Both the position numbers and the translations under genes were made by a program. A stretch of DNA of 64,000 nucleotides from an uncultured Candidatus Saccharibacteria bacterium (GTDB lineage Bacteria; Patescibacteriota; Minisyncoccia; Phycocordibacterales; DATDWN01). The notes below the pieces were generated by a model, which was not told the DNA's origin, ran no database searches, and saw nothing but the letters and a program-made list of their open reading frames with translations. How positions within the stretch are numbered: the stretch's first letter is position 1; every line of letters begins with the position of its first letter. Of the stretch, positions 2,260-42,035 are shown one piece after another. The stretch spans positions 147,587-211,586 of the forward strand of contig CAYXWL010000001.1 in NCBI GenBank assembly GCA_964468795.1, given 5' to 3'.

Positions 2260-2374
2260 AGTCTTGTCGTGGTCATATACATTTTAGAGACTTCGCAGGC
2301 GGGTAGCCGAGGCTTGAGGAAAATCGTACCAACGATTTATCCGTGCTCTAAAATGTATGTGACGAGACAAGACT
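2260..2374. repeat. Family-1 TIR element copy E1 (about 115 nt)
   Basis: About 29-bp terminal inverted repeat (agtcttgtcgtggtcatatacattttagag / ctctaaaatgtatgtgacgagacaagact) enclosing the core gagacttcgcaggcgggtagccgaggcttgagg plus a small hairpin (aaatcgt/acgattt); 82-93% identical to E2 over core and TIRs; starts 20 nt upstream of the prfA ATG. Confidence 0.6.
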
Positions 2375-2390
2375 CGTGAATGTGAAAACG

Positions 2391-2657
2391 TTATTTTGAA
2401 GCTTTTGCTTTGGCCTTTGCAACCTTTGCTCTAAACTTCTCAGCTCGTCCAGCTGTATCTAGAGACTTCTCGTTTCCAGTGTAGAATGGGTGACTTGCTG
2501 AAGAGATTTCTAGTCGAAATACTGGGTATTCCTTTCCATCCTTTGCTTTTGCCTTTTCTGTTGTGTGAACTGTAGACGCAATAATAAACTCGGCACCGTT
2601 TGAGTTGTCGATAAATAGAACTGGTCTGTAGTTTTCTGGGTGAATTTCCTTTTTCAT
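2391..2657 (-). CDS. rpmE: 50S ribosomal protein L31 (type B, no Zn cysteines)
   Basis: 88-aa MKKEIHPENYRP...HPFYTG pattern of L31. Confidence 0.85.
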   Translation of the reverse strand: MKKEIHPENYRPVLFIDNSNGAEFIIASTVHTTEKAKAKDGKEYPVFRLEISSASHPFYTGNEKSLDTAGRAEKFRAKVAKAKAKASK

Positions 2658-2728
2658 TGCCTATGTAAGATACCAAAAAGCCTCCATTTTGGCAAGATAT
2701 CTGCAAAATTCTGCAATTAATTTTGGCT

Positions 2729-4105
2729 TTATCTCCTTGATACTCCGTACTGCGTTAGGTAATCAATATCAGCCTGTATGCTATTTTTTAGATTCATCAC
2801 GCTTCTTCCATATGAACAGCTTGAGCCTCCACTACCGTAATATTTACATGCCGCCCTTATTTCTCCGCTATATGTTTGGCTAGATGCACCCAAGTCTCCT
2901 AGATACATTGCTGAAGCAGTAAAGGCATCTTCTGGAGACCATGGGTTTGGCTCGTGATTTAATGCGGATCTTAGCCTGTCTTCAAACAGCATCCAAGTTG
3001 AAGCGATGAACTGAGCAGGGCCCATGGCTCCTCCATATCCTCCAGCTCCTGCAATAGGACAAGAAACCACAGTTTTCATAGGATCAAAACCAAGTCTTGA
3101 AGTAATATCAAGAAACGGCTGTATATCCCTGCTTGGTTTCATTAGGTTAGGCCATGTCTTCCCAGATGAAACATTTACTCCCGCACCCGTTGTAGTGTCG
3201 GTTAAGTAACACTTGCCCACATTTGCTCCCAGATTAGACTCTTGTGTAAGTATCGCCAATACAAAAGCTGGTGCAACTCCTGTCCGATTGGAAGCCGAGT
3301 TTGCATAATTTAATGCCGTGCCAAAATCAATTGCCGCACTTCCTCCTGCAAGCTTGAAGAGTTTTGCTTTTATTTCCGCTGCTTTTTTTTGCCTTTCAGC
3401 CAGGATTTGAGAATATGTCTTTTCCTGAGTCTTGCTGACCTGGACCAAGTACTCCTTTTCTTTTTCGTTAGTTTGAACTTTTTTTTGTTCAGCTTCTGCA
3501 GAAGCTTTTGTATCCGCTTCCTTATCTTTTTGAAGGGCTAGAGCATTTTTTTCTTTTTCCGTGAGTTCCTTGTTTGCTCTAAGTTCGTTGAAAACTACCT
3601 TTAGCGAGGCATTAACAGACTTAAAAGTATCAATATCGCTGAAGAAATCTGAAATACTCTGATTGCCGAGCATTACTTCAGGCAGACTATAAGAGTCCAG
3701 ATCTTTTGTTTTTCTCAAGAGCTGTGACAGCGAATCCTGCCCAGCTTGTATTTTCTCCTCAAGAGTTGCAATGTGAGCATTCTTGTTTGCTATGTCCTTT
3801 TCGAGCTGAGCAATGGCTATGTTTTTTTGTTTTATAAATGCTTTAGCCTGGGCAATCTTTGCATTCAATTGCGCAACTTCGCTCTGTAGAGATTTAGTAT
3901 TTGCTTTTGTACTATCCAAAATCGCCTGCCACTTTGCTATGTCAGCCTCAGTCTGAGCCAGCTCTGCACGCCACTGAGCCTCCTGTTCAGCGTCAGTAAT
4001 GGCAGAAGCAGAGTTTGGAAGCAAAAGCCCAAGTGATAATGCGATAGAAATGGAAAGTGCTATGACGTAAGCCTTTTTCAAGCACAAAAATAACCGTATA
4101 GGCAT
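2729..4105 (-). CDS. secreted coiled-coil protein with C-terminal lytic transglycosylase (SLT)-like domain
   Basis: N-terminal signal/TM, long Ala/Gln/Lys coiled coil, C-terminal ...LTQESNLG...AMGPAQF motif pattern of SLT-type muramidases. Confidence 0.5.
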   Translation of the reverse strand: MPIRLFLCLKKAYVIALSISIALSLGLLLPNSASAITDAEQEAQWRAELAQTEADIAKWQAILDSTKANTKSLQSEVAQLNAKIAQAKAFIKQKNIAIAQLEKDIANKNAHIATLEEKIQAGQDSLSQLLRKTKDLDSYSLPEVMLGNQSISDFFSDIDTFKSVNASLKVVFNELRANKELTEKEKNALALQKDKEADTKASAEAEQKKVQTNEKEKEYLVQVSKTQEKTYSQILAERQKKAAEIKAKLFKLAGGSAAIDFGTALNYANSASNRTGVAPAFVLAILTQESNLGANVGKCYLTDTTTGAGVNVSSGKTWPNLMKPSRDIQPFLDITSRLGFDPMKTVVSCPIAGAGGYGGAMGPAQFIASTWMLFEDRLRSALNHEPNPWSPEDAFTASAMYLGDLGASSQTYSGEIRAACKYYGSGGSSCSYGRSVMNLKNSIQADIDYLTQYGVSRR

Positions 4106-4200
4106 GGTTGAATTATATCATCAAAAATATTTTCTGTAACTTATTAATAAAGACGGATGCGTGTATTCCATCTTACATTTTTATTACAATATTTAGCTAA

Positions 4201-4250
4201 AAAAATTACCACATGAGTTTGAAAGTCTTTCATGTGGTAATTTTTCTTTA
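4201..4250. terminator. bidirectional hairpin terminator downstream of rplY
   Basis: 13-bp perfect stem aattaccacatga / tcatgtggtaatt (4204..4216 / 4230..4242) flanked by an A-run and a T-run. Confidence 0.5.
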
Positions 4251-4880
4251 TTCTGCTGGGACTTCCTCTTCCTCCTTCTTGCCCTTCTTTTCAACTTCGA
4301 TAGCTGATAGATCAACTGGAACTTCCTCCTTCTCTTCTTGAGGAGCGGCAACTGAAGCCACAACCTCCTCAGCATTCTCGACTAGGTCAACTCCCTTTGG
4401 AAGCTCGATCTGAGAAGCTAGTATGACCATTCCAATCTCTTTTAGAGATGAAATATCTACTTTGATATCATGAGGCAAATTCTGTGGCTCTGCAGAAATC
4501 TTTAGCTCGTGCAAAGTCTTGATAAGGTTTCCTCCAAGATCCTTTACTGCAGCAGATACTCCGACGAAATCGAGCGGAACTGCCACTTCAACTTTCTTAC
4601 CCTTTTCGAATACATAAAAGTCTGCATGTCTTGGGGCGTCTGTAATAGGATCAATATCAACATCCTTTAGGAGAGTATCAAATGAACCGGCTGGAGTGAC
4701 TATAGTTATAACTCCTGACTCTCCAGCTTCTCTCCATGACTTCATAAAATCCTTTTGTGAGATAGAAATAGGTGTAGATTCTGTCTTTTTTCCGTAGAAA
4801 ACAGCAGGCATCTTACCCTCCTTTCTCAAGGCCTCTAGGCTTGCAGTCTTATCTCTTTTTTGTGCTTCTAATTTAATCAT
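4248..4880 (-). CDS. rplY: 50S ribosomal protein L25 / general stress protein Ctc
   Basis: MIKLEAQKRDKTASLEALRKEGKMPAVFYGK... L25 N-domain; start moved to ATG at 4880 (ORF track extends to 4964). Confidence 0.75.
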   Translation of the reverse strand: MIKLEAQKRDKTASLEALRKEGKMPAVFYGKKTESTPISISQKDFMKSWREAGESGVITIVTPAGSFDTLLKDVDIDPITDAPRHADFYVFEKGKKVEVAVPLDFVGVSAAVKDLGGNLIKTLHELKISAEPQNLPHDIKVDISSLKEIGMVILASQIELPKGVDLVENAEEVVASVAAPQEEKEEVPVDLSAIEVEKKGKKEEEEVPAE

Positions 4881-4967
4881 TCGGCCAGTATATCCAAAAT
4901 AATTCAATAAATCAAGCTTTTTATAACGAATTTGCCTGGCCGTCAAAGTGCGACTGCCAGGCAAAAA

Positions 4968-5180
4968 TCAATTCATGACTATATCCTGAAAACTGTCTCC
5001 CAGAAGCATGCTGAGCTCATCGAGGCCAATCGACAGCCTCCTTGCAAGCTCGACCGAGAAATTTCCATTGATGTAACACTGTAGGCGAATGTCCATGAGA
5101 TCGTCCCTGTCTACCGGATTGCCTGCATAAGCAGACTTTAGCACAGCAGTTGCATACTCTATGCAGAAAACACGACTCAT
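4968..5180 (-). CDS. hypothetical small protein (GC-rich, carries a GGAGG-type RBS)
   Basis: About 50% GC ORF (MSRVFCIEYATAVLK...) with AGGAGGGCTC-ATG ribosome-binding site, inserted between rplY and fba, whose genes lack SDs; no recognisable domain. Confidence 0.3.
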   Translation of the reverse strand: MSRVFCIEYATAVLKSAYAGNPVDRDDLMDIRLQCYINGNFSVELARRLSIGLDELSMLLGDSFQDIVMN

Positions 5181-5224
5181 GAGCCCTCCTCTACCACTAT
5201 TGCACAAATGTTACTTTTTTCAAA

Positions 5225-6091
5225 CTAGAAATTATTGAAGAACCTCAGCTTCTTATCTACAACTTCTTGAACTGACTTCACTGAAGTTTTTAGGAATTTG
5301 TATGGTGCTACCTCGTCTGGATTTTCAGACAGGCCTTTCATTAGGCCCTGTTTGTATGCTACTCGTATTTCTGTATTTATATGAACAATAGCTATGCCGT
5401 TTGCAATAGACTGCTTGAAATCATCTTCTGAATTTCCCGAACCTCCATGTAAAACAAGCGGAATACCAGTTATTTCTGCAATTTCCTTTACACGAACAAT
5501 ATTCAGCTTTGGATCAACTCCACCCTTGAGCATTCCATGAAAATTCCCTACTGCAGGCGCAAGCATGTCTATTCCGGTAAGCAAAACAAACTCCTTTGCT
5601 TTTTCTGGATTTGTTAGCGAGCTTTCATCAAGCATAACTCCTTCTGGTATTTCATCTAGCACTTTTGATGACTGGCCTATGTAGCCAAGCTCTGCTTCAA
5701 CCAAGACTTCTTTTCCGGAATTCCTAGCATACTCAACGCACTGCTTGGTCAATTTTACATTTTCCTCAAAGGAAAGCTTCGCACCATCAATGATCACCGA
5801 ATCAAATCCCGCATCAATCGCCTCTTTTACCCTGTCGAAGGAGTAAGTATGGTCAGCATTTAAGTAAATTGGATAATCAAACTCTTCTCTGATGCTTTTG
5901 ACCAAGGCCACTGCCTGCCTAACCCCAACAAAGTCCCTCTCGCCTTCCGAAACTCCAATTATTACTGGAACATTTAGGTTCTGTGCGGCCCTGAATATTC
6001 CCCATAAAGCTTCTAAGTTAGAAATATTAAAATGGCCTATTGCTACTTTTTTCTCTCGTGCTTCCTGCACAGATTGTTTCAGTGTTTTCAT
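5225..6091 (-). CDS. fba: class II fructose-bisphosphate aldolase
   Basis: 288 aa, class II ketose-bisphosphate aldolase pattern (…LHGGSGNSEDD…). Confidence 0.85.
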   Translation of the reverse strand: MKTLKQSVQEAREKKVAIGHFNISNLEALWGIFRAAQNLNVPVIIGVSEGERDFVGVRQAVALVKSIREEFDYPIYLNADHTYSFDRVKEAIDAGFDSVIIDGAKLSFEENVKLTKQCVEYARNSGKEVLVEAELGYIGQSSKVLDEIPEGVMLDESSLTNPEKAKEFVLLTGIDMLAPAVGNFHGMLKGGVDPKLNIVRVKEIAEITGIPLVLHGGSGNSEDDFKQSIANGIAIVHINTEIRVAYKQGLMKGLSENPDEVAPYKFLKTSVKSVQEVVDKKLRFFNNF

Positions 6092-6305
6092 GAAATTTAT
6101 TATAACATATCATTTTTAAGACACGCATATTTGTTTGATAACAAATTGCTACGCTCGGAAATCAAGAAAACAATCTTCTCGTTCCGGTGCCTTCTCGCAA
6201 ACTCGCTATCGCTCAAACAGTGCTCCAGGCACTCTTCCACTCGTCGTTGTTTTCTAATTTCCTGTGCGATGTCTAAAAAATGTTATGTTGTAAGCACTTC
6301 GTTGA

Positions 6306-6398
6306 CCCATATTATTTTAGGAGACTTCGCAAGGCGGGTAGCCGAGACTTGAGGAATTTTTCAGCAGAAAAATATCCGTGCTCCTAAAATGATATGGG
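6306..6398. repeat. Family-1 TIR element copy E2 (93 nt)
   Basis: 18-bp TIR cccatattattttaggag / ctcctaaaatgatatggg around the core gagacttcgcaaggcgggtagccgagacttgagg and an atttttc/gaaaaat hairpin; ends 47 nt upstream of the kinase ATG; flanked by tcgttga (left) and gagaaaga (right), as is E3. Confidence 0.6.
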
Positions 6399-6444
6399 GA
6401 GAAAGAAGTGCGGTAGTTGAGAACAATTTGTTATAATAAATTTT

Positions 6445-7437
6445 ATGAAAAATATTGATATGCTCGCTATCGGAGACGTGGTGATAGATGCTTTTATCAG
6501 ACTAGAAGATGCGGAAGTAAATTGCGATATAGACAAGCAGAACTGCAAGCTTTGCGTGAGATTTGGAGACAAGGTGCCATACGAATCAGTTGAGATCTGC
6601 AACGCGGTGGGAAACAGCGCAAACGCTGCCGTATCAGCATCACGACTTGGACTCAGCTCTGCTCTATTTACATATATTGGAGATGATCAAAACGGAAAAG
6701 ATTGCCTCGAGTCACTTAGAAAAGACGGAGTGCATGTTGATTACATACAGGCCCAAGCCGGAAAGAAGACAAATTATCACTATGTGCTTTGGTACGACGT
6801 TGATAGAACTATTTTAGTAAAGCACGAACATTTCAATTATGACTTTTCGAACGTTGAGCCTCCAAAATGGATATACCTCAGCTCTCTTTCAGAAAACTCT
6901 TTGGACTTCCACATGCAAATTGCAGATTTTTTGGAAAAAAACCCTGATGTAAAACTTGCTTTCCAGCCTGGAACTTTCCAAATGAGAATGGGCAAGGAAA
7001 AACTTTACAGAGTATATAACCGAACAGATATTTTCTTTTGCAATGTTGAAGAGGCACAGCTCATCTTGGGCGAAACGTCTCGAGAATTGCCTGTACTCAT
7101 GAAAGGTATTGCAGCGCTCGGCCCAAAGATCATCGTAATCACCGACGGATTTGCAGGAGCTTACGCAATGAGAGCAGAAAAAGAAGAAGAAATATTGTTC
7201 ATGCCGGTTTACCCACACACTCCATTTGAAAGGACAGGTGCAGGAGATGCTTATGCATCAACAGTTGTTTCAGCACTTGCTATGGGTGAGACTTTGGAGA
7301 CTGCACTAACATGGGCACCAATAAACTCTATGTCTGTAGTACAGCAAGTTGGCGCACAAAAAGGATTGCTTACACTAGAAAAATTAAAAGACTACCTAGC
7401 AAAAGCTCCCGAGGATTATAAACTCGGAAAGTTATAG
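6445..7437 (+). CDS. PfkB-family carbohydrate kinase (ribokinase-like)
   Basis: C-terminal GAGD motif (TGAGDAYASTVVSALAMG) and ribokinase-like N-terminal region; TATAAT 7 nt upstream of ATG (near-leaderless). Confidence 0.8.
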   Translation: MKNIDMLAIGDVVIDAFIRLEDAEVNCDIDKQNCKLCVRFGDKVPYESVEICNAVGNSANAAVSASRLGLSSALFTYIGDDQNGKDCLESLRKDGVHVDYIQAQAGKKTNYHYVLWYDVDRTILVKHEHFNYDFSNVEPPKWIYLSSLSENSLDFHMQIADFLEKNPDVKLAFQPGTFQMRMGKEKLYRVYNRTDIFFCNVEEAQLILGETSRELPVLMKGIAALGPKIIVITDGFAGAYAMRAEKEEEILFMPVYPHTPFERTGAGDAYASTVVSALAMGETLETALTWAPINSMSVVQQVGAQKGLLTLEKLKDYLAKAPEDYKLGKL

Positions 7438-7440
7438 ACG

Positions 7441-7467
7441 AAAGCGCGGGTTCCCCCGCGCTTTTTC
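7441..7467 (+). terminator. rho-independent terminator
   Basis: aaagcgcggg-ttcc-cccgcgcttt hairpin followed by a T-run. Confidence 0.6.
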
Positions 7468-7478
7468 ATTAAAATAAT

Positions 7479-8474
7479 TTATTTTCTTCCTATTACTTTC
7501 TTTACTGTTTTTACAATATCTTCCTCACCCATTCCGTAATGCTCGATAAGTTCATCCTGCGTACCAGACTGCCCGAACAAATCCCTTACACCGATTCTTT
7601 CCATCGGTACTGGCATATTTTCTACTAAAACTTCTGCAACAGCCCCGCCGAGTCCTCCATTTATCTGATGCTCCTCAACAGTTACTATCGCTCCGCAAGT
7701 TTCTGCGATTTTTATTATGCTCTCCTTATCAATAGGTTTTATTGTTGAAATATTTAAAACTTTTGCCGAGATTCCGTCTTTCTTTAGCATCTCTGCACTC
7801 TTTAAAGCTCTGTAAACTAAGGCTCCTGTAGCAATAATCCCAACCTCTGCTTTTCCATTTTCATCACCGTAATAAAGCTGTGCTTTTCCAACCTCGAATG
7901 GAGTTTCGTCTGTTGTGATGACTGGAGTTTTTTCTCGTGCCAGCCTTATATAAACAGGTTTGCCAAGTTTTGCAGAAGCTATTGTGGCTTTGCGTGCCTC
8001 AATATGATCGCACGGAGAAATTACTATCATGTTTGGTATGACACGAGTTATCGCAATGTCTTCTATGGCTTGGTGTGTTCCGCCATCTGGTCCCACCGAA
8101 ACTCCTGCATGGCTTCCAGCAATTATTACTGGCCTATCGTTGTAGCAAATTGTGGTTCGTATCTGCTCCCAGTTTCTTCCAGGAGAAAACATCGCATAGC
8201 TTGAGATAAATGGAATTTTACCCATGGCAGACATGCCACTAGCAACAGATGCCATGTTTTGTTCAGCTATTCCTATTTCAACAAATCGCTCAGGAAATTT
8301 TTCGGCAAACAAGTTCATCTTTGTTGATTCGGTAAGATCTGCGCAAAGACCAACGACTCTAGTGTCATTTTCTCCTGCAATCAAAAGCCCATCACCAAAA
8401 CCCTTTCGGATAGGCGCCTGCTCCACTTTTTTATGAAACAATTTCGAATTTAGTTTTTGATTTGAGTTTATCAT
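7479..8474 (-). CDS. tktB: transketolase, C-terminal subunit
   Basis: Pyrimidine-binding and C-terminal domains of a split transketolase. Confidence 0.85.
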   Translation of the reverse strand: MINSNQKLNSKLFHKKVEQAPIRKGFGDGLLIAGENDTRVVGLCADLTESTKMNLFAEKFPERFVEIGIAEQNMASVASGMSAMGKIPFISSYAMFSPGRNWEQIRTTICYNDRPVIIAGSHAGVSVGPDGGTHQAIEDIAITRVIPNMIVISPCDHIEARKATIASAKLGKPVYIRLAREKTPVITTDETPFEVGKAQLYYGDENGKAEVGIIATGALVYRALKSAEMLKKDGISAKVLNISTIKPIDKESIIKIAETCGAIVTVEEHQINGGLGGAVAEVLVENMPVPMERIGVRDLFGQSGTQDELIEHYGMGEEDIVKTVKKVIGRK

Positions 8475-8475
8475 T

Positions 8476-9378
8476 TTATTCGTGCTCGGAAACTATTTGT
8501 CCTCCCAATGTTCGAAGCTCTCGCAAAGCAATCTTCTCCTGTTCGTCTTTTGGGGGTTCGCCTGGAATCTCTGTGCCTGGAGGATTTCCATGCCACTTGT
8601 AGTCGCGTTCCATGAAAGAAACACCTTTGCCTGGAATAGTTCTCGCAACTATTACGCTTGGGCCATCAAAGACAGCCTGCGCCCTGCCGATAGCGGAAAC
8701 TATTTCTTCGAATGAGTGTCCATTTATTTCCTCTGCATGCCAGCCAAAGCTTTCAAACTTGTGCACCACAGAATCTAAGGGCATAACATCTTCTGTGTAA
8801 CCGTCTATCTGAATATTATTCCTATCCACTATTGCAATTAAATTTCCAAGTCTCTCTTTACCTGCAAGCATTATTGCTTCCCAATTTTGTCCCTCATCAA
8901 GCTCTCCATCGCCCAAAAGACAATAAAAAAATCTATCTGAAGATTTGCCGTTATCCATTCTATCAGCGATAGCCATGCCCACCGCCTGAGAAAGACCTGA
9001 ACCAAGAGGACCTGAAGATGTTTCAAGCATTGGCAAGTATTCCCTGTGCGGGTGACCCTGAAGTCTTGAACCAAATTTTCTCAGAGTTAATAGTTCTGAA
9101 ACAGGAAAATACCCAGCATGTGCCATAGTTGCATACAAAACTGGATTTATATGTCCGTTTGAAAGTATGAGCCTATCCCTATCTTTCCAAAAAGGGTCTT
9201 GAGGATTGTGGCGCATTATAAAAAAGTACAACGCTGTGAAAATATCTGCCATACCAAGGGGTCCTGCCGAGTGGCCTGAACCGGCAGAAACAAGCATTTC
9301 TATTATTGAAATCCTTATCTCGCGCGCTTTTTCTTCGAGGAATTTTATTTTCTCATCAGTGAGATTGTTTGCCATCAA
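8476..9378 (-). CDS. tktA: transketolase, N-terminal (TPP-binding) subunit
   Basis: GDG…E…N TPP-binding motif (CLLGDGELDEGQNWEAIM); adjacent to tktB. Confidence 0.85.
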   Translation of the reverse strand: MMANNLTDEKIKFLEEKAREIRISIIEMLVSAGSGHSAGPLGMADIFTALYFFIMRHNPQDPFWKDRDRLILSNGHINPVLYATMAHAGYFPVSELLTLRKFGSRLQGHPHREYLPMLETSSGPLGSGLSQAVGMAIADRMDNGKSSDRFFYCLLGDGELDEGQNWEAIMLAGKERLGNLIAIVDRNNIQIDGYTEDVMPLDSVVHKFESFGWHAEEINGHSFEEIVSAIGRAQAVFDGPSVIVARTIPGKGVSFMERDYKWHGNPPGTEIPGEPPKDEQEKIALRELRTLGGQIVSEHE

Positions 9379-9426
9379 AATAATTATACCCTACACGCAG
9401 GCAATAACAATATAATTGTTCAGATT

Positions 9427-10095
9427 TTAAAAAGAGAGTTCGTTATAAGCCTCTTCTGGGCTTTGAGATTCCAATATTGCTGATCCTGAAATAAGCTTGT
9501 TTGCCCCTGCTTCTACTAGAATGTCCTTGGTTTCCATGTTTACACCGATATCAATTGCAATTATTTTTTCTGGATATTTTTCTCTAAGAATTTTTATTTT
9601 TTCTATTGCAGATTCATCCAGCTCTACTCCATGGTTGCCCAACGCATTGCTTCCCATCACTTGTATGAAATTCGCTATTCCAGCGACTTCTTCCAGCCTT
9701 TCAACATCGGTCCCAGGTTTTATAGCTACCCCGATTGAAACTTCGTTTTTATCGCAAATTTCTTTTATTTTTCGAAAATCAGAAATTGTTTCAATGTGAC
9801 AGACAACTGCAGATATTCCAGTATGAACCCAATCAAGCAAAACTTCCTCTGGCTTTTCTACCATAAGGTGCAATTCTACATCCACATCCTCCCATTTTGG
9901 CCAGCCAACCTCTTCACTTTTGAGTTTTTCAAAATATTCCTTATCCTGTCCGTTGTATGGCCAAGTTTTTGTCCTTGTAAAAACTCCATCGGAAATATCT
10001 ACCTGAACAGTGTCGGCGAAAGCAGAAACCGTTGAAATCTCTTCTTCAAGCTGGGATTTGTTAAATGGAATGACAGCTGGTACTACTTTTATCAT
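9427..10095 (-). CDS. rpe: ribulose-phosphate 3-epimerase
   Basis: Rpe-like TIM barrel (…DVELHLMVEKPE…, …ISDGVF…). Confidence 0.75.
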   Translation of the reverse strand: MIKVVPAVIPFNKSQLEEEISTVSAFADTVQVDISDGVFTRTKTWPYNGQDKEYFEKLKSEEVGWPKWEDVDVELHLMVEKPEEVLLDWVHTGISAVVCHIETISDFRKIKEICDKNEVSIGVAIKPGTDVERLEEVAGIANFIQVMGSNALGNHGVELDESAIEKIKILREKYPEKIIAIDIGVNMETKDILVEAGANKLISGSAILESQSPEEAYNELSF

Positions 10096-10397
10096 TTTAT
10101 TTTTCTTATTTTAACAATTATGCCTCCTGTTATAGAGCCAATAATTGCATAAAAAACAAATGCTCCAAACAAAGCTCCCCAAAGATTTATAGGAAGGTGC
10201 GGAGCCACTGCTCGTACTAAAACTGAAAGCGCTCCCATTACATACAATGTCGGAAGCGACCAATATGGAAAACATATAAATTCACAATGAGTAGGCGCTC
10301 CGAACGGATAAAGAAATGAACTTATTGATATATAAAATAACACGCCGGCAACTGCTCCAATAAGCATATACTTTTTTACACCTGAAAGTTTAGTCAT
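10092..10397 (-). CDS. small hydrophobic membrane protein (hypothetical)
   Basis: 101-aa ORF with 3 predicted TM helices, overlapping ends with rpe and rpiB. Confidence 0.3.
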   Translation of the reverse strand: MTKLSGVKKYMLIGAVAGVLFYISISSFLYPFGAPTHCEFICFPYWSLPTLYVMGALSVLVRAVAPHLPINLWGALFGAFVFYAIIGSITGGIIVKIRKIK

Positions 10398-10836
10398 AGT
10401 TTTCTATTTTCTTAATTCTTCTTGCATGCCTTTCCTCTTCGGAAAAATTGGTTTTTAACCACAAGAGAACCGCATCTTTTGCTTCCATGGTAGTAATAAA
10501 ATGGGCAGCCAGAGAAAGTATATTTGCATCATTATGTTCTCGCGATAAAGTCAGTATATGCTTGTTCCCTCCATAAAAAACTGCACACCTGACATTTGAA
10601 AATCTGTTGCAAACAATAGCCTCGCCCTGTCCTGAAAATCCCAAGACAATACCCATGGATGCTGGGTCGTTGCTGACCTCCTTTGCTACTAGTGAAATGT
10701 AGTCAGGATAGTCATCATCATGATCATACTTTTTCGGACCGCAATCCTGTACATCGTATCCATTATCCAACAGAAAAGGAACCAAATCCTTTTTCAATAG
10801 ATACCCCGCATGATCTGAGCTAATATAGATTTTCAT
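10390..10836 (-). CDS. rpiB: ribose-5-phosphate isomerase B
   Basis: MKIYISSDHAGYLLKKDL… RpiB/LacAB family; start moved to ATG at 10836 because the longer ORF-track start would read through repeat E3. Confidence 0.8.
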   Translation of the reverse strand: MKIYISSDHAGYLLKKDLVPFLLDNGYDVQDCGPKKYDHDDDYPDYISLVAKEVSNDPASMGIVLGFSGQGEAIVCNRFSNVRCAVFYGGNKHILTLSREHNDANILSLAAHFITTMEAKDAVLLWLKTNFSEEERHARRIKKIENYD

Positions 10837-10879
10837 AAAAATATTATAGCAGAAATAATACGAAAAGAATCTCGTTGAG

Positions 10880-11077
10880 TCATAACTTTTTAGAGACCTC
10901 CGCAGACCTTGAGCTGGTTTAGTCAAGGTATTCTGCCTTGACTAAACCAGCTCAAGGTTGAGGTGAGAAGCGGAGCTTCGCAATACCTTGAGCAAAGTTT
11001 TGCGAAAGGTGTACGGCTCCTGTAAGGAGGAAGTGAGCGTAGCGCTGGCGGAGCGAACGGTCTCTAAAAAGTCATGA
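10880..11077. repeat. Family-1 TIR element copy E3 (198 nt, with a 23-bp internal perfect hairpin)
   Basis: Perfect 18-bp TIR tcataactttttagagac / gtctctaaaaagtcatga; internal perfect palindrome 10906..10958 (accttgagctggtttagtcaagg-tattctg-ccttgactaaaccagctcaaggt); begins 44 nt upstream of the rpiB ATG. Confidence 0.6.
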
Positions 11078-11110
11078 GGAGAAAGAGATTCCTTAGCAAA
11101 GAAAACAAAT

Positions 11111-38618: not shown

Positions 38619-38649
38619 ATGACTATGAATGTAAACTTTCACAATTTGA

Positions 38650-38745
38650 GTGAAATTCGACGTGAGAATTTGAAAATGTGAGAAGCTTTATTTAAAATAA
38701 AGTGACGAACATTTTCAAATTGGGAACGAGAAGTTCACCAAATTT
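38650..38745 (+). repeat. Family-2 intergenic hairpin repeat, copy A
   Basis: About 85% identical to the reverse complement of 41898..41994; internal perfect 13-bp stem aatttgaaaatgt/acattttcaaatt (38667..38679 / 38709..38721). Confidence 0.6.
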
Positions 38746-38751
38746 GGAAGT

Positions 38752-39330
38752 TTAGAAGTTAACTTTAGGAGCCTCTTGGTTCGCCTGTGGCACATTAAAG
38801 TAAGCATGCTCTCCAAAACCTGAAAGTTTTGCAATCAGAGCTGATGGAAATCTTTTTACTCCAGTATTGTATGTTTGTACAAGTTGATTATATTTCATTC
38901 TTTCAACAGAAATCCTGTTCTCCGTTCCTTCTAGAGAAACCATTAGATCTTTAAAGTTTTGGCTAGACTGTAGCTGAGGGTAATTTTCCGTAATTACAAG
39001 CAATCTTCCTAGAGCTGATTCAACTTGTGATGCAGCAGCCGCCTTTTCGTCAGCTGTTCTTGCTCCGGAATATCTCGTCCTAGCTTCAGCTATCTGACCA
39101 AATACTGTCTGCTCTTGAGTAGCAAATCCCTTCACTGTGTTTACAAGGTTAGGAATGAGATCGAATCGCCTCTGATATTGGTTTTCAACCTGAGCCCACT
39201 GACCTGTAATAGCCTCGTTCTGAGATACAAATGAATTGTATTGTCCAAAACCCCAAATAAACAATAGACCTAAAACCGCAAGTACAACCACCCACTTCAT
39301 ATTCCTTTGAAAAAAGTTCTGTTCTTCCAT
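38752..39330 (-). CDS. lemA: LemA family protein
   Basis: N-terminal TM + LemA domain; TPM partner gene adjacent. Confidence 0.8.
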   Translation of the reverse strand: MEEQNFFQRNMKWVVVLAVLGLLFIWGFGQYNSFVSQNEAITGQWAQVENQYQRRFDLIPNLVNTVKGFATQEQTVFGQIAEARTRYSGARTADEKAAAASQVESALGRLLVITENYPQLQSSQNFKDLMVSLEGTENRISVERMKYNQLVQTYNTGVKRFPSALIAKLSGFGEHAYFNVPQANQEAPKVNF

Positions 39331-41660: not shown

Positions 41661-41891
41661 ATGAGTATGACTGAAATGATTCCGTATATTCAGATTGTAT
41701 TGGCAGTCCTCCTTATCGGAGGCATTCTCCTACAAAGATCAGAAGCTGCTCTAGGTAGCGCTTTTGGTGGCGGAGACGCATTCTCTACTGGATATCATAC
41801 AAAGCGAGGCGCAGAGAAGACGCTATTTGTAGCGACAATTGTTGTTGCTGTTTTATTCGTCTCTACCTCTTTCGCCCTCCTACTCATCTAA
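41661..41891 (+). CDS. secG: preprotein translocase subunit SecG
   Basis: 76 aa, two TM helices with Gly-rich loop (LGSAFGGGDAFSTGY). Confidence 0.7.
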   Translation: MSMTEMIPYIQIVLAVLLIGGILLQRSEAALGSAFGGGDAFSTGYHTKRGAEKTLFVATIVVAVLFVSTSFALLLI

Positions 41892-41897
41892 ATCTTT

Positions 41898-41994
41898 AAA
41901 TTTGGCGAACTTCTCGTTCCCAGTTTAGAAATGCTCGTTAACTTATATCTAAATAAGGCTCCTCGCATTTCTAAACTCTCACGTCGAATTTCGC
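41898..41994 (-). repeat. Family-2 intergenic hairpin repeat, copy B (inverted)
   Basis: Reverse complement aligns to 38650..38745; internal 11-bp stem gtttagaaatg/catttctaaac with compensatory changes relative to copy A. Confidence 0.6.
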
Positions 41995-42035
41995 ACAAAT
42001 TAAAAGATTTCACATATTAAGATAAACCTAATCTC

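Follow-up and report, generated by a model that had tools for sequence, protein, structure and literature searches.

A probable MITE-like family of structured intergenic repeats in Parcubacteria-group genomes

This analysis concerns a family of intergenic palindromes in a 64,000-nucleotide stretch of DNA (hereafter the window) from an uncultured Candidatus Saccharibacteria bacterium (contig CAYXWL010000001.1 of assembly GCA_964468795.1, positions 147,587 to 211,586). An earlier note on this DNA had described three of them, E1, E2 and E3, as MITE-like (miniature inverted-repeat transposable element) or otherwise structured elements of a family that it did not recognise. Together with a decayed fourth copy at 6101-6182, these are probably copies of a non-autonomous, MITE-like DNA transposon family of Parcubacteria-group bacteria, a reading to which we assign a probability of about 0.68. 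The elements are small, contain no open reading frame (ORF), occur in many copies, are bounded by terminal inverted repeats, show target-site duplication and differ in presence or absence between relatives. As a MITE-like structured repeat, the family is new; no Rfam family matches it, and no description of such elements in Patescibacteria was found in the literature.

The family spreads by insertion of DNA, during which 7 bp of AT-rich target are duplicated. The clearest cases are three young paralogues of one metagenome-assembled genome (MAG), at the loci L015, L018 and L027 (the loci examined are numbered with the prefix L), which have common 18-bp termini, CTTTGAATTAYRAAACTC...GAGTTTCGTAATTCAAAG. 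Perfect 7-bp direct repeats bracket all three, with a different sequence at each copy: TATTATA, TATTTTA and TAACTTA. Taken as inverted repeats, the same flanks have 5 mismatches in 21 positions and are therefore duplications, not extensions of the arms. A fourth copy, L031:8504-8641, has a 6/7 repeat (TGTTATT/TATTATT) in the arrangement CA-TGTTATT-[element]-TATTATT-CATG, and the syntenic empty site in L022 reads CATA-TGTTATT-CATG, with a single TGTTATT. Other filled and empty pairs are L053 versus L052 and L060, and L037 versus L056.

At syntenic intergenic sites, the elements come and go, and they decay. The gap between prfA and L31 has a copy in the + orientation in the window and in L068, and in the - orientation in L074. 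Between FBA and PfkB, E2 lies in one orientation and a copy in L010 in the opposite one. The TktN-o9427 gap is occupied in the + orientation in L002, in the - orientation in L022, and is empty in the window, and the PfkB/TktC gap has a + copy in four loci and a - copy in L086/L087. An E1-type copy with near-identical arms is found at a different locus in L031. Decay is visible as relics, a truncation (L019), a deletion remnant (L010) and chimeric copies. L010 was considered as a clean empty site for E2; it retains the right-end motif GAGAAAGAGGTGC and is a deletion remnant. The mobility that the earlier note had suspected is thus supported by the 7-bp duplications, an empty site and patchy syntenic occupancy, and of the further copies and duplications that it proposed to look for in relatives, copies were found in number and duplications at a few of them.

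A 22-nt core pattern matched 30 loci in the GTDB representative genomes, all from Parcubacteria-group / Patescibacteria MAGs and often several within one MAG. Among them are records titled Zambryskiibacteriota, Paceibacterota or Minisyncoccia and, in several cases, Saccharibacteria. A family covariance model was made from 28 copies, 26 from other genomes along with E1 and E2 themselves. In the window, it finds E2, E1 and the 6101-6182 relic; in the fetched loci, it finds more divergent copies, five of them within 8 kb of L011. A sample unselected for the core, consisting of 80 metagenome loci syntenic with the window and fetched via PfkB (45-68% identity, 748 kb), holds only 14-17 copies, and most of these loci have none. 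The distribution is thus patchy, with high density in some genomes only. A search of viral contigs, phage records and plasmid records gave no family match.

With Rfam 15 at gathering thresholds, the window yields three tRNAs only. At E<=10, also on the elements alone or on short stretches (E2, E3 and four loci), nothing rises above noise, and the Rfam search that the earlier note had proposed thus came back empty. Clostridiales-1, the best of these scores, was rejected as a match for E3, reaching 15-19 bits against a threshold of 48 and being absent on other long forms. This weak match falls on module M of E3 (10963-11048) and is driven by a UGAGC/GCGAA tandem-GA hairpin.

The window elements were judged by their RNA fold energy and its z-score against shuffled sequence, and their gene neighbours were identified with Pfam. 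All three palindromes noticed earlier fold strongly: -54 kcal/mol (z -7.6) for E1 (2260-2374), -40.3 kcal/mol (z -6.0) for E2 and -106.3 kcal/mol (z -10.5) for E3. They lie in the same orientation, on the + strand, which for each of them folds more stably than the - strand. The boundaries of E1 were kept, and those of E2 and E3 were moved because pairing runs further out. The copy number of three did not hold, as a decayed inverted copy was also found, giving a density of four copies in 9 kb. The features are as follows.

2260..2374, + strand: E1, short-form copy; 96 bits, E 5.5e-25 with the family covariance model; arms AGTCTTGTCGTGGTCATATACATTTTAGAG / CTCTAAAATGTATGTGACGAGACAAGACT; core 2287-2348, with P2 hairpin 2298-2308 and P3 hairpin 2318-2342
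6101..6182, - strand: decayed inverted copy; 28.5 bits, E 1.2e-5 with model R1
6294..6411, + strand: E2, short-form copy; 109 bits, E 1e-28 with the family covariance model; outer stem GCACTTC/GAAGTGC, internal loop GTTGA / GAGAAA, core 6320-6384
10867..11091, + strand: E3, long-form relative with an extra module M of ~85 nt; outer stem GAATCTC/GAGATTC, internal loop GTTGA / GAGAAA as in E2
10906..10958, + strand: perfect 23-bp hairpin within E3, in the place of the short-form P2 hairpin
10963..11030, + strand: module M within E3, UGAGAAG-hairpin-CUUCGCAAUA-hairpin(CCUUGAGC..GCGAAAGG)-UGUAC-hairpin(CUCC UGUAA GGAG)

E1 and E2 have a nearly exact core in common, GAGACTTCGCA(A)GGCGGGTAGCCGAG(A/G)CTTGAGG, with one indel and one substitution over 34 nt, as the earlier note had seen, and the differences between their apical hairpins are compensatory changes. 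The termini that it attributed to all three elements are not common to them: the right end of E1 and E2 is GTGCTC(C)TAAAA, and GTCTCTAAAA is found in E3 only. Its other observations on E3, namely the perfect 23-bp hairpin and the flanks TCGTTGA and GAGAAAGA held in common with E2, were reproduced. Since the "cttcgca..cttgag" of E3 belongs to module M, which aligns it with the long-form copies L019, L023 and L025, and not to the 5' core of E1 and E2, since its arms resemble those of the short copy L004, and since E3 as a whole matches neither family model R1 nor R2, it is by its sequence a diverged long-form relative rather than a third equal copy.

E1 is flanked by the L31 stop (2391) and the prfA start (2239), E3 by the GAPDH stop (11111) and the rpiB start (10836). 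In both cases the two genes are on the - strand and the element is antisense to both. E2 occupies the gap between the divergent genes FBA (-) and PfkB (+). The arms of E1 are near-identical to those of L031:3614-3710 and related to those of L068:2197-2296. The 6101-6182(-) relic, which adjoins the FBA promoter and start codon, retains P3 and the right arm; its P2 domain is lost and its left arm is unpaired. The intact L010 copy has the same position and the same orientation.

Throughout the family, the element is an imperfect palindrome of 115-225 bp, in which arms of 15-45 bp pair in every intact copy. From the outside inwards, sequence-variable outer arms of 5-19 bp are followed by a conserved asymmetric internal loop (CTCGTTGA on the left and GAGAAAGAG on the right, usually CTC-GTTGA / GAGAAA-GAG, with a variant ACGGTGA / GAGCCAAG), a middle stem that often reads RTCATATC but is variable, and a U/A-rich inner stem (U-run/A-run) ending in GGAG/CUCC. 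The next pair inward, at the top of P1, is A·G, G·A or C-G, with A·G swapping with G·A. The core of ~60 nt is a three-way junction, (R)C-UUC-GNA-[P2 hairpin]-GAG-NN-UGAG-[P3 hairpin]-GUG. The P2 stem is GGC/GCC, GCGC/GCGC, GCUC/GAGC, GGCC/GGCC, GGCU/AGCC, GGGC/GCCC or GGAC/GUCC. Its loop is GUAG or GACG (2302-2305 and 6337-6340 in the window) and is followed by GAG. P3 has an AGCA loop and a bulged A before GUG. This core is near-invariant across MAGs filed under different candidate phyla, and the arms drift. An outer P2 helix (CAAG/CUUG) suggested by fold prediction was discarded, as it is lost in divergent subtypes and only the P2 hairpin covaries.

Some copies (L015:1210-1372, L027) contain extra hairpins inserted exactly at the P2 or P3 loop. 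Module M, 85 nt long with three covarying hairpins, is placed at P3 in L019 and L023, at P2 in L025:6489-6652, and in L011:2761-2918 it is inverted and replaces the 3' half. The outer frame may be shared by several families with different cores, because L002:3100-3210 has a similar loop around an unrelated core. This other hairpin element, adjoining GAPDH, has a GTTGA / GAAAC internal loop. The idea that the core was inserted into an older REP-like hairpin family was rejected: TCGTTGA and GAGAAAGA occur in the window at near chance count and are paired at E2 and E3 only.

Selection acts on the fold. Among 49 copies, pairing is kept in 95.8% of cells, all 33 modelled pairs have changes on both sides, and compensatory cells number 323, compared with 73±7 in shuffles. 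When the partner is slid by 1-3 columns, pairing falls to ~50%. The alignment of these copies was fitted to the model, which favours structure, although the arms align almost gap-free. In a neutral DNA palindrome, G·U and A·C mismatches are expected to be equal. On the core-sense strand, their ratio is 46:10 in the model-aligned pairs (binomial p 1e-6) and 14:3 in an independent arm-against-arm alignment limited to isolated mismatches. This excess on one strand argues that the fold is selected in the single-stranded form of that strand, most likely RNA. The view that the elements act at the DNA level rather than as RNA therefore stands only in part: they spread as a DNA transposon, but their helices covary, with a strand-specific G·U excess, as do both core hairpins.

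The mechanism that would unite these observations is as follows. A transposase supplied in trans would move the elements. An inserted copy would form a compact rod, tolerated and sometimes used by the neighbouring genes, for example as a stand-in for a terminator between convergent genes or as a source of -35-like hexamers for the prfA and rpiB promoters. The fold would be selected in transcripts, and the invariant core may be recognised by a factor needed for propagation or persistence of the element.

Several observations weigh against a simple transposon. Target-site duplications were recognised in 4 of ~55 copies only, none of them in the window, and at older copies a scan for decayed duplications gave no more than offset controls did. 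The DNA searched yielded neither an autonomous element nor a transposase whose ends match. In the 110 loci examined, the terminus TTTGAATTNNGAAAC occurs only at the elements themselves (an example of the family termini is CTTTGAATTAC...GTAATTCAAAG). If a transposase recognised the terminal repeats, these should be the conserved part; instead, the arms vary from subfamily to subfamily around an invariant core. Moreover, conservation of the E1-type arms extends across genomes with a PfkB identity of only 55-68%, as if the element were retained for long periods or had a function and were not purely selfish. Finally, the G·U excess is strongest in copies that run in the direction of both neighbours (19:2, versus 7:5 in antisense copies); with a Fisher p of 0.07, this difference is suggestive only.

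One candidate for an autonomous partner, lying between long inverted repeats at 38.6 and 42.0 kb, was dismissed, as the 3.2-kb segment encodes GroES, GroEL and LemA and no transposase. The repeats themselves (38629-38756 and 41887-42015) form a second family of hairpin elements, with two inverted copies flanking groES-groEL-lemA. At their apex, UGAGAAG precedes a hairpin, as at the beginning of module M, and their frame is loosely like the internal loop of the family described here.

The conservation of the core rather than of the terminal repeats would be explained if the core were an active RNA, i.e., a transposition cofactor or guide, a self-cleaving ribozyme, or a trans-acting RNA gene carried on interchangeable transposon arms. 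This we regard as doubtful. An alternative, unlikely although the most probable of the rivals, is a multi-copy, stand-alone small RNA gene with a protein-binding or catalytic junction and a long closing stem, spread by duplication or on transposon arms. Such a gene would fit a core far better conserved than its arms, invariant unpaired junction nucleotides, the 46:10 excess of G·U on one strand, the tolerance of extra hairpins exactly at the P2 and P3 loops, and the persistence of E1-type copies across deep divergence. However, no conserved promoter or terminator accompanies the copies. The upstream flanks of paralogues are unrelated and thus reveal no sense-strand promoter, the stem boundaries being too uncertain for a formal test, and -10-like hexamers in the arms do not favour the outward over the inward direction. 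Relics, truncations and chimeras are frequent among the copies, one of them containing module M in inverted form; copies antisense to their neighbours have little G·U excess; and the target-site duplications show spread by DNA transposition.

A folded single-stranded DNA, read as one-strand hairpins by an enzyme of the HUH/RAYT or attC type, is improbable. Its attractions are a strand-specific tolerance of mismatches and core hairpins that covary, their sequence being free while the structure holds. The family resembles the repetitive extragenic palindrome (REP) elements, associated with RAYT transposases, in being intergenic, palindromic, present in many copies and probably forming RNA hairpins. 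In addition, the P2 loop GUAG or GACG equals the tetranucleotides GTAG and CGTC (the latter on the other strand) that recur in REP elements and tag two REP superfamilies (PMC3733652), which may be a coincidence. Unlike REP elements, which are 20-40 bp long, GC-rich, tagged by an unpaired tetranucleotide at one end and not accompanied by a duplication, the elements here measure 115-225 bp, have the tetranucleotide in the P2 loop instead of at the stem foot, and duplicate 7 bp, so that membership of the REP/RAYT group was rejected on size and layout.

Neither HUH nor tyrosine-recombinase mechanisms produce 7-bp target duplications; IS200/IS605, IS91 and integron systems are not known to make any of this kind. 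Neighbouring copies moreover show no strand bias. An origin as an IS200/IS605-derived palindrome-associated transposable element (PATE), with subterminal hairpins and neither terminal inverted repeats nor a duplication, does not agree with a single closing hairpin and 7-bp duplications. As for integron attC sites (RYYYAAC / GTTRRRY), no R'/R'' core sites are present: the left GTTGA and right GAGAAAG are not complementary, and the copies are not arrayed but dispersed in both orientations. The likeness to TIGR-Tas stem arrays is superficial, the copies being dispersed singletons, and inspection of the copies revealed no box C/D consensus, although no formal motif search was made.

The genomic context was used to weigh a role in the host. 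Both neighbours could be called for 46 copies: 13 are co-directional (+,+), 16 antisense (-,-), 10 convergent and 7 divergent, roughly as expected of random insertion into intergenic DNA. It is hardly probable that the elements are host-selected transcript ends or insulators (REP- or SPRITE-like), serving as bidirectional terminators or RNA stabilisers with only incidental mobility. E1 and E3 do lie between a stop codon and the promoter of the next gene. Furthermore, the convergent PfkB/TktC gap has a copy at exactly the terminator position in six related loci, a position at which L056 has an ordinary terminator hairpin and the window a GC-rich, terminator-like hairpin with a T-run (7441-7466, AAAGCGCGGG-TTCC-CCCGCGCTTTTT). 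Nevertheless, ~15% of the copies, E2 among them, lie between divergent genes, where there is nothing to terminate; the U-run comes before the stem and the A-run after it; and termination needs no invariant 60-nt junction core.

A cis-regulatory leader (riboswitch or attenuator) is extremely improbable, even though E1, E2 and E3 all lie 20-47 nt upstream of start codons (20 nt for prfA, 46 nt for PfkB and 43 nt for rpiB) and, as stated earlier, in both orientations relative to these genes, because orientation is random relative to both neighbours, the functions of the neighbouring genes are unrelated and the elements lie upstream of the promoters; equally improbable is chance similarity, excluded by model E-values of 1e-25 and dozens of copies elsewhere. 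This agrees with the earlier argument against a cis-regulatory RNA. Upstream of prfA, FBA, PfkB and rpiB, a (TG-)TATAAT box ends 6-7 nt before the ATG (2247-2252, ~6099-6105, ~6429-6437 and ~10844-10852), and the genes would therefore be leaderless, with the elements upstream of the core promoters. Judged by this spacing, leaderless mRNAs appear to be widely used in this organism.

Effects on the host may nevertheless occur under the transposon reading. On the - strand, the left arms of E1 (2271-2276) and E3 (10878-10883) read ATGACC and ATGACT, 17-18 nt upstream of the -10 boxes of prfA and rpiB, and may supply -35-like hexamers to hybrid promoters of these two genes. The E1-type arm GTCGTGGTCAT is conserved in L031 and L068. 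Such promoter hexamers and the replacement of a terminator are possible side effects on the host and do not explain the core.

Among known repeats, the closest comparison is bcr1, one of the Group A bcr repeats of the Bacillus cereus group. It is a ~155-bp intergenic repeat without an ORF, has short direct repeats and a strain-variable distribution, and is transcribed, with a branched fold kept by compensatory changes at the RNA level (PMC3184786). The present family is likewise interspersed and ORF-less, with short direct repeats and a branched fold maintained by compensatory change. Unlike bcr1, which duplicates 5 bp and is confined to a single species group, it has a 7-bp duplication, a core near-identical across MAGs filed under different candidate phyla, and a much longer, sequence-variable closing stem.

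The Correia elements (CREE/nemis) of Neisseria are MITEs of 100-160 bp with no known transposase, which form a long hairpin in transcripts, adjoin promoters and gene ends, and can supply promoter hexamers (PMC2649163, PMC2229807). The elements described here are similarly MITE-like and hairpin-forming, lie near promoters and gene ends, and possibly provide promoter hexamers. They differ in their variable arms, three-way-junction core and 7-bp duplication from the Correia elements, whose 26-bp terminal repeats are conserved, whose duplication is TA and whose core contains an IHF site. Compared with repeats of the bcr1 and Correia type, a core far better conserved than the terminal repeats is unusual. 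The BOX repeats of pneumococcus are modular (PMC3049150, PMC3184786), and here too, as in BOX repeats and the BIMEs of enterobacteria, short form, module M and other hairpins are put together in varying order and orientation. Unlike those tandem mosaics of short units without target duplication, the modules are nested in one closing hairpin.

Parcubacteria-group bacteria have very small genomes, in which mobile DNA is generally said to be scarce. A dense repeat family in them alters the reading of their intergenic DNA, promoters and transcript ends. With more than 50 natural variants and heavy covariation, the family is a good candidate for a new RNA fold or for a transposition partnership between RNA and protein. 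The family model can be used to annotate the elements in MAGs, where confusion with regulatory RNAs may otherwise arise.

Two further structures were observed. In the window, the interval between SLT and the next gene contains a hairpin (4195-4251) with an A-run, a stem and a T-run, resembling a bidirectional terminator, in which the family model sees a generic hairpin only. In L001:5358-5620, a larger palindrome encloses two copies of different subtypes, arranged tail to tail with 12 nt between them.

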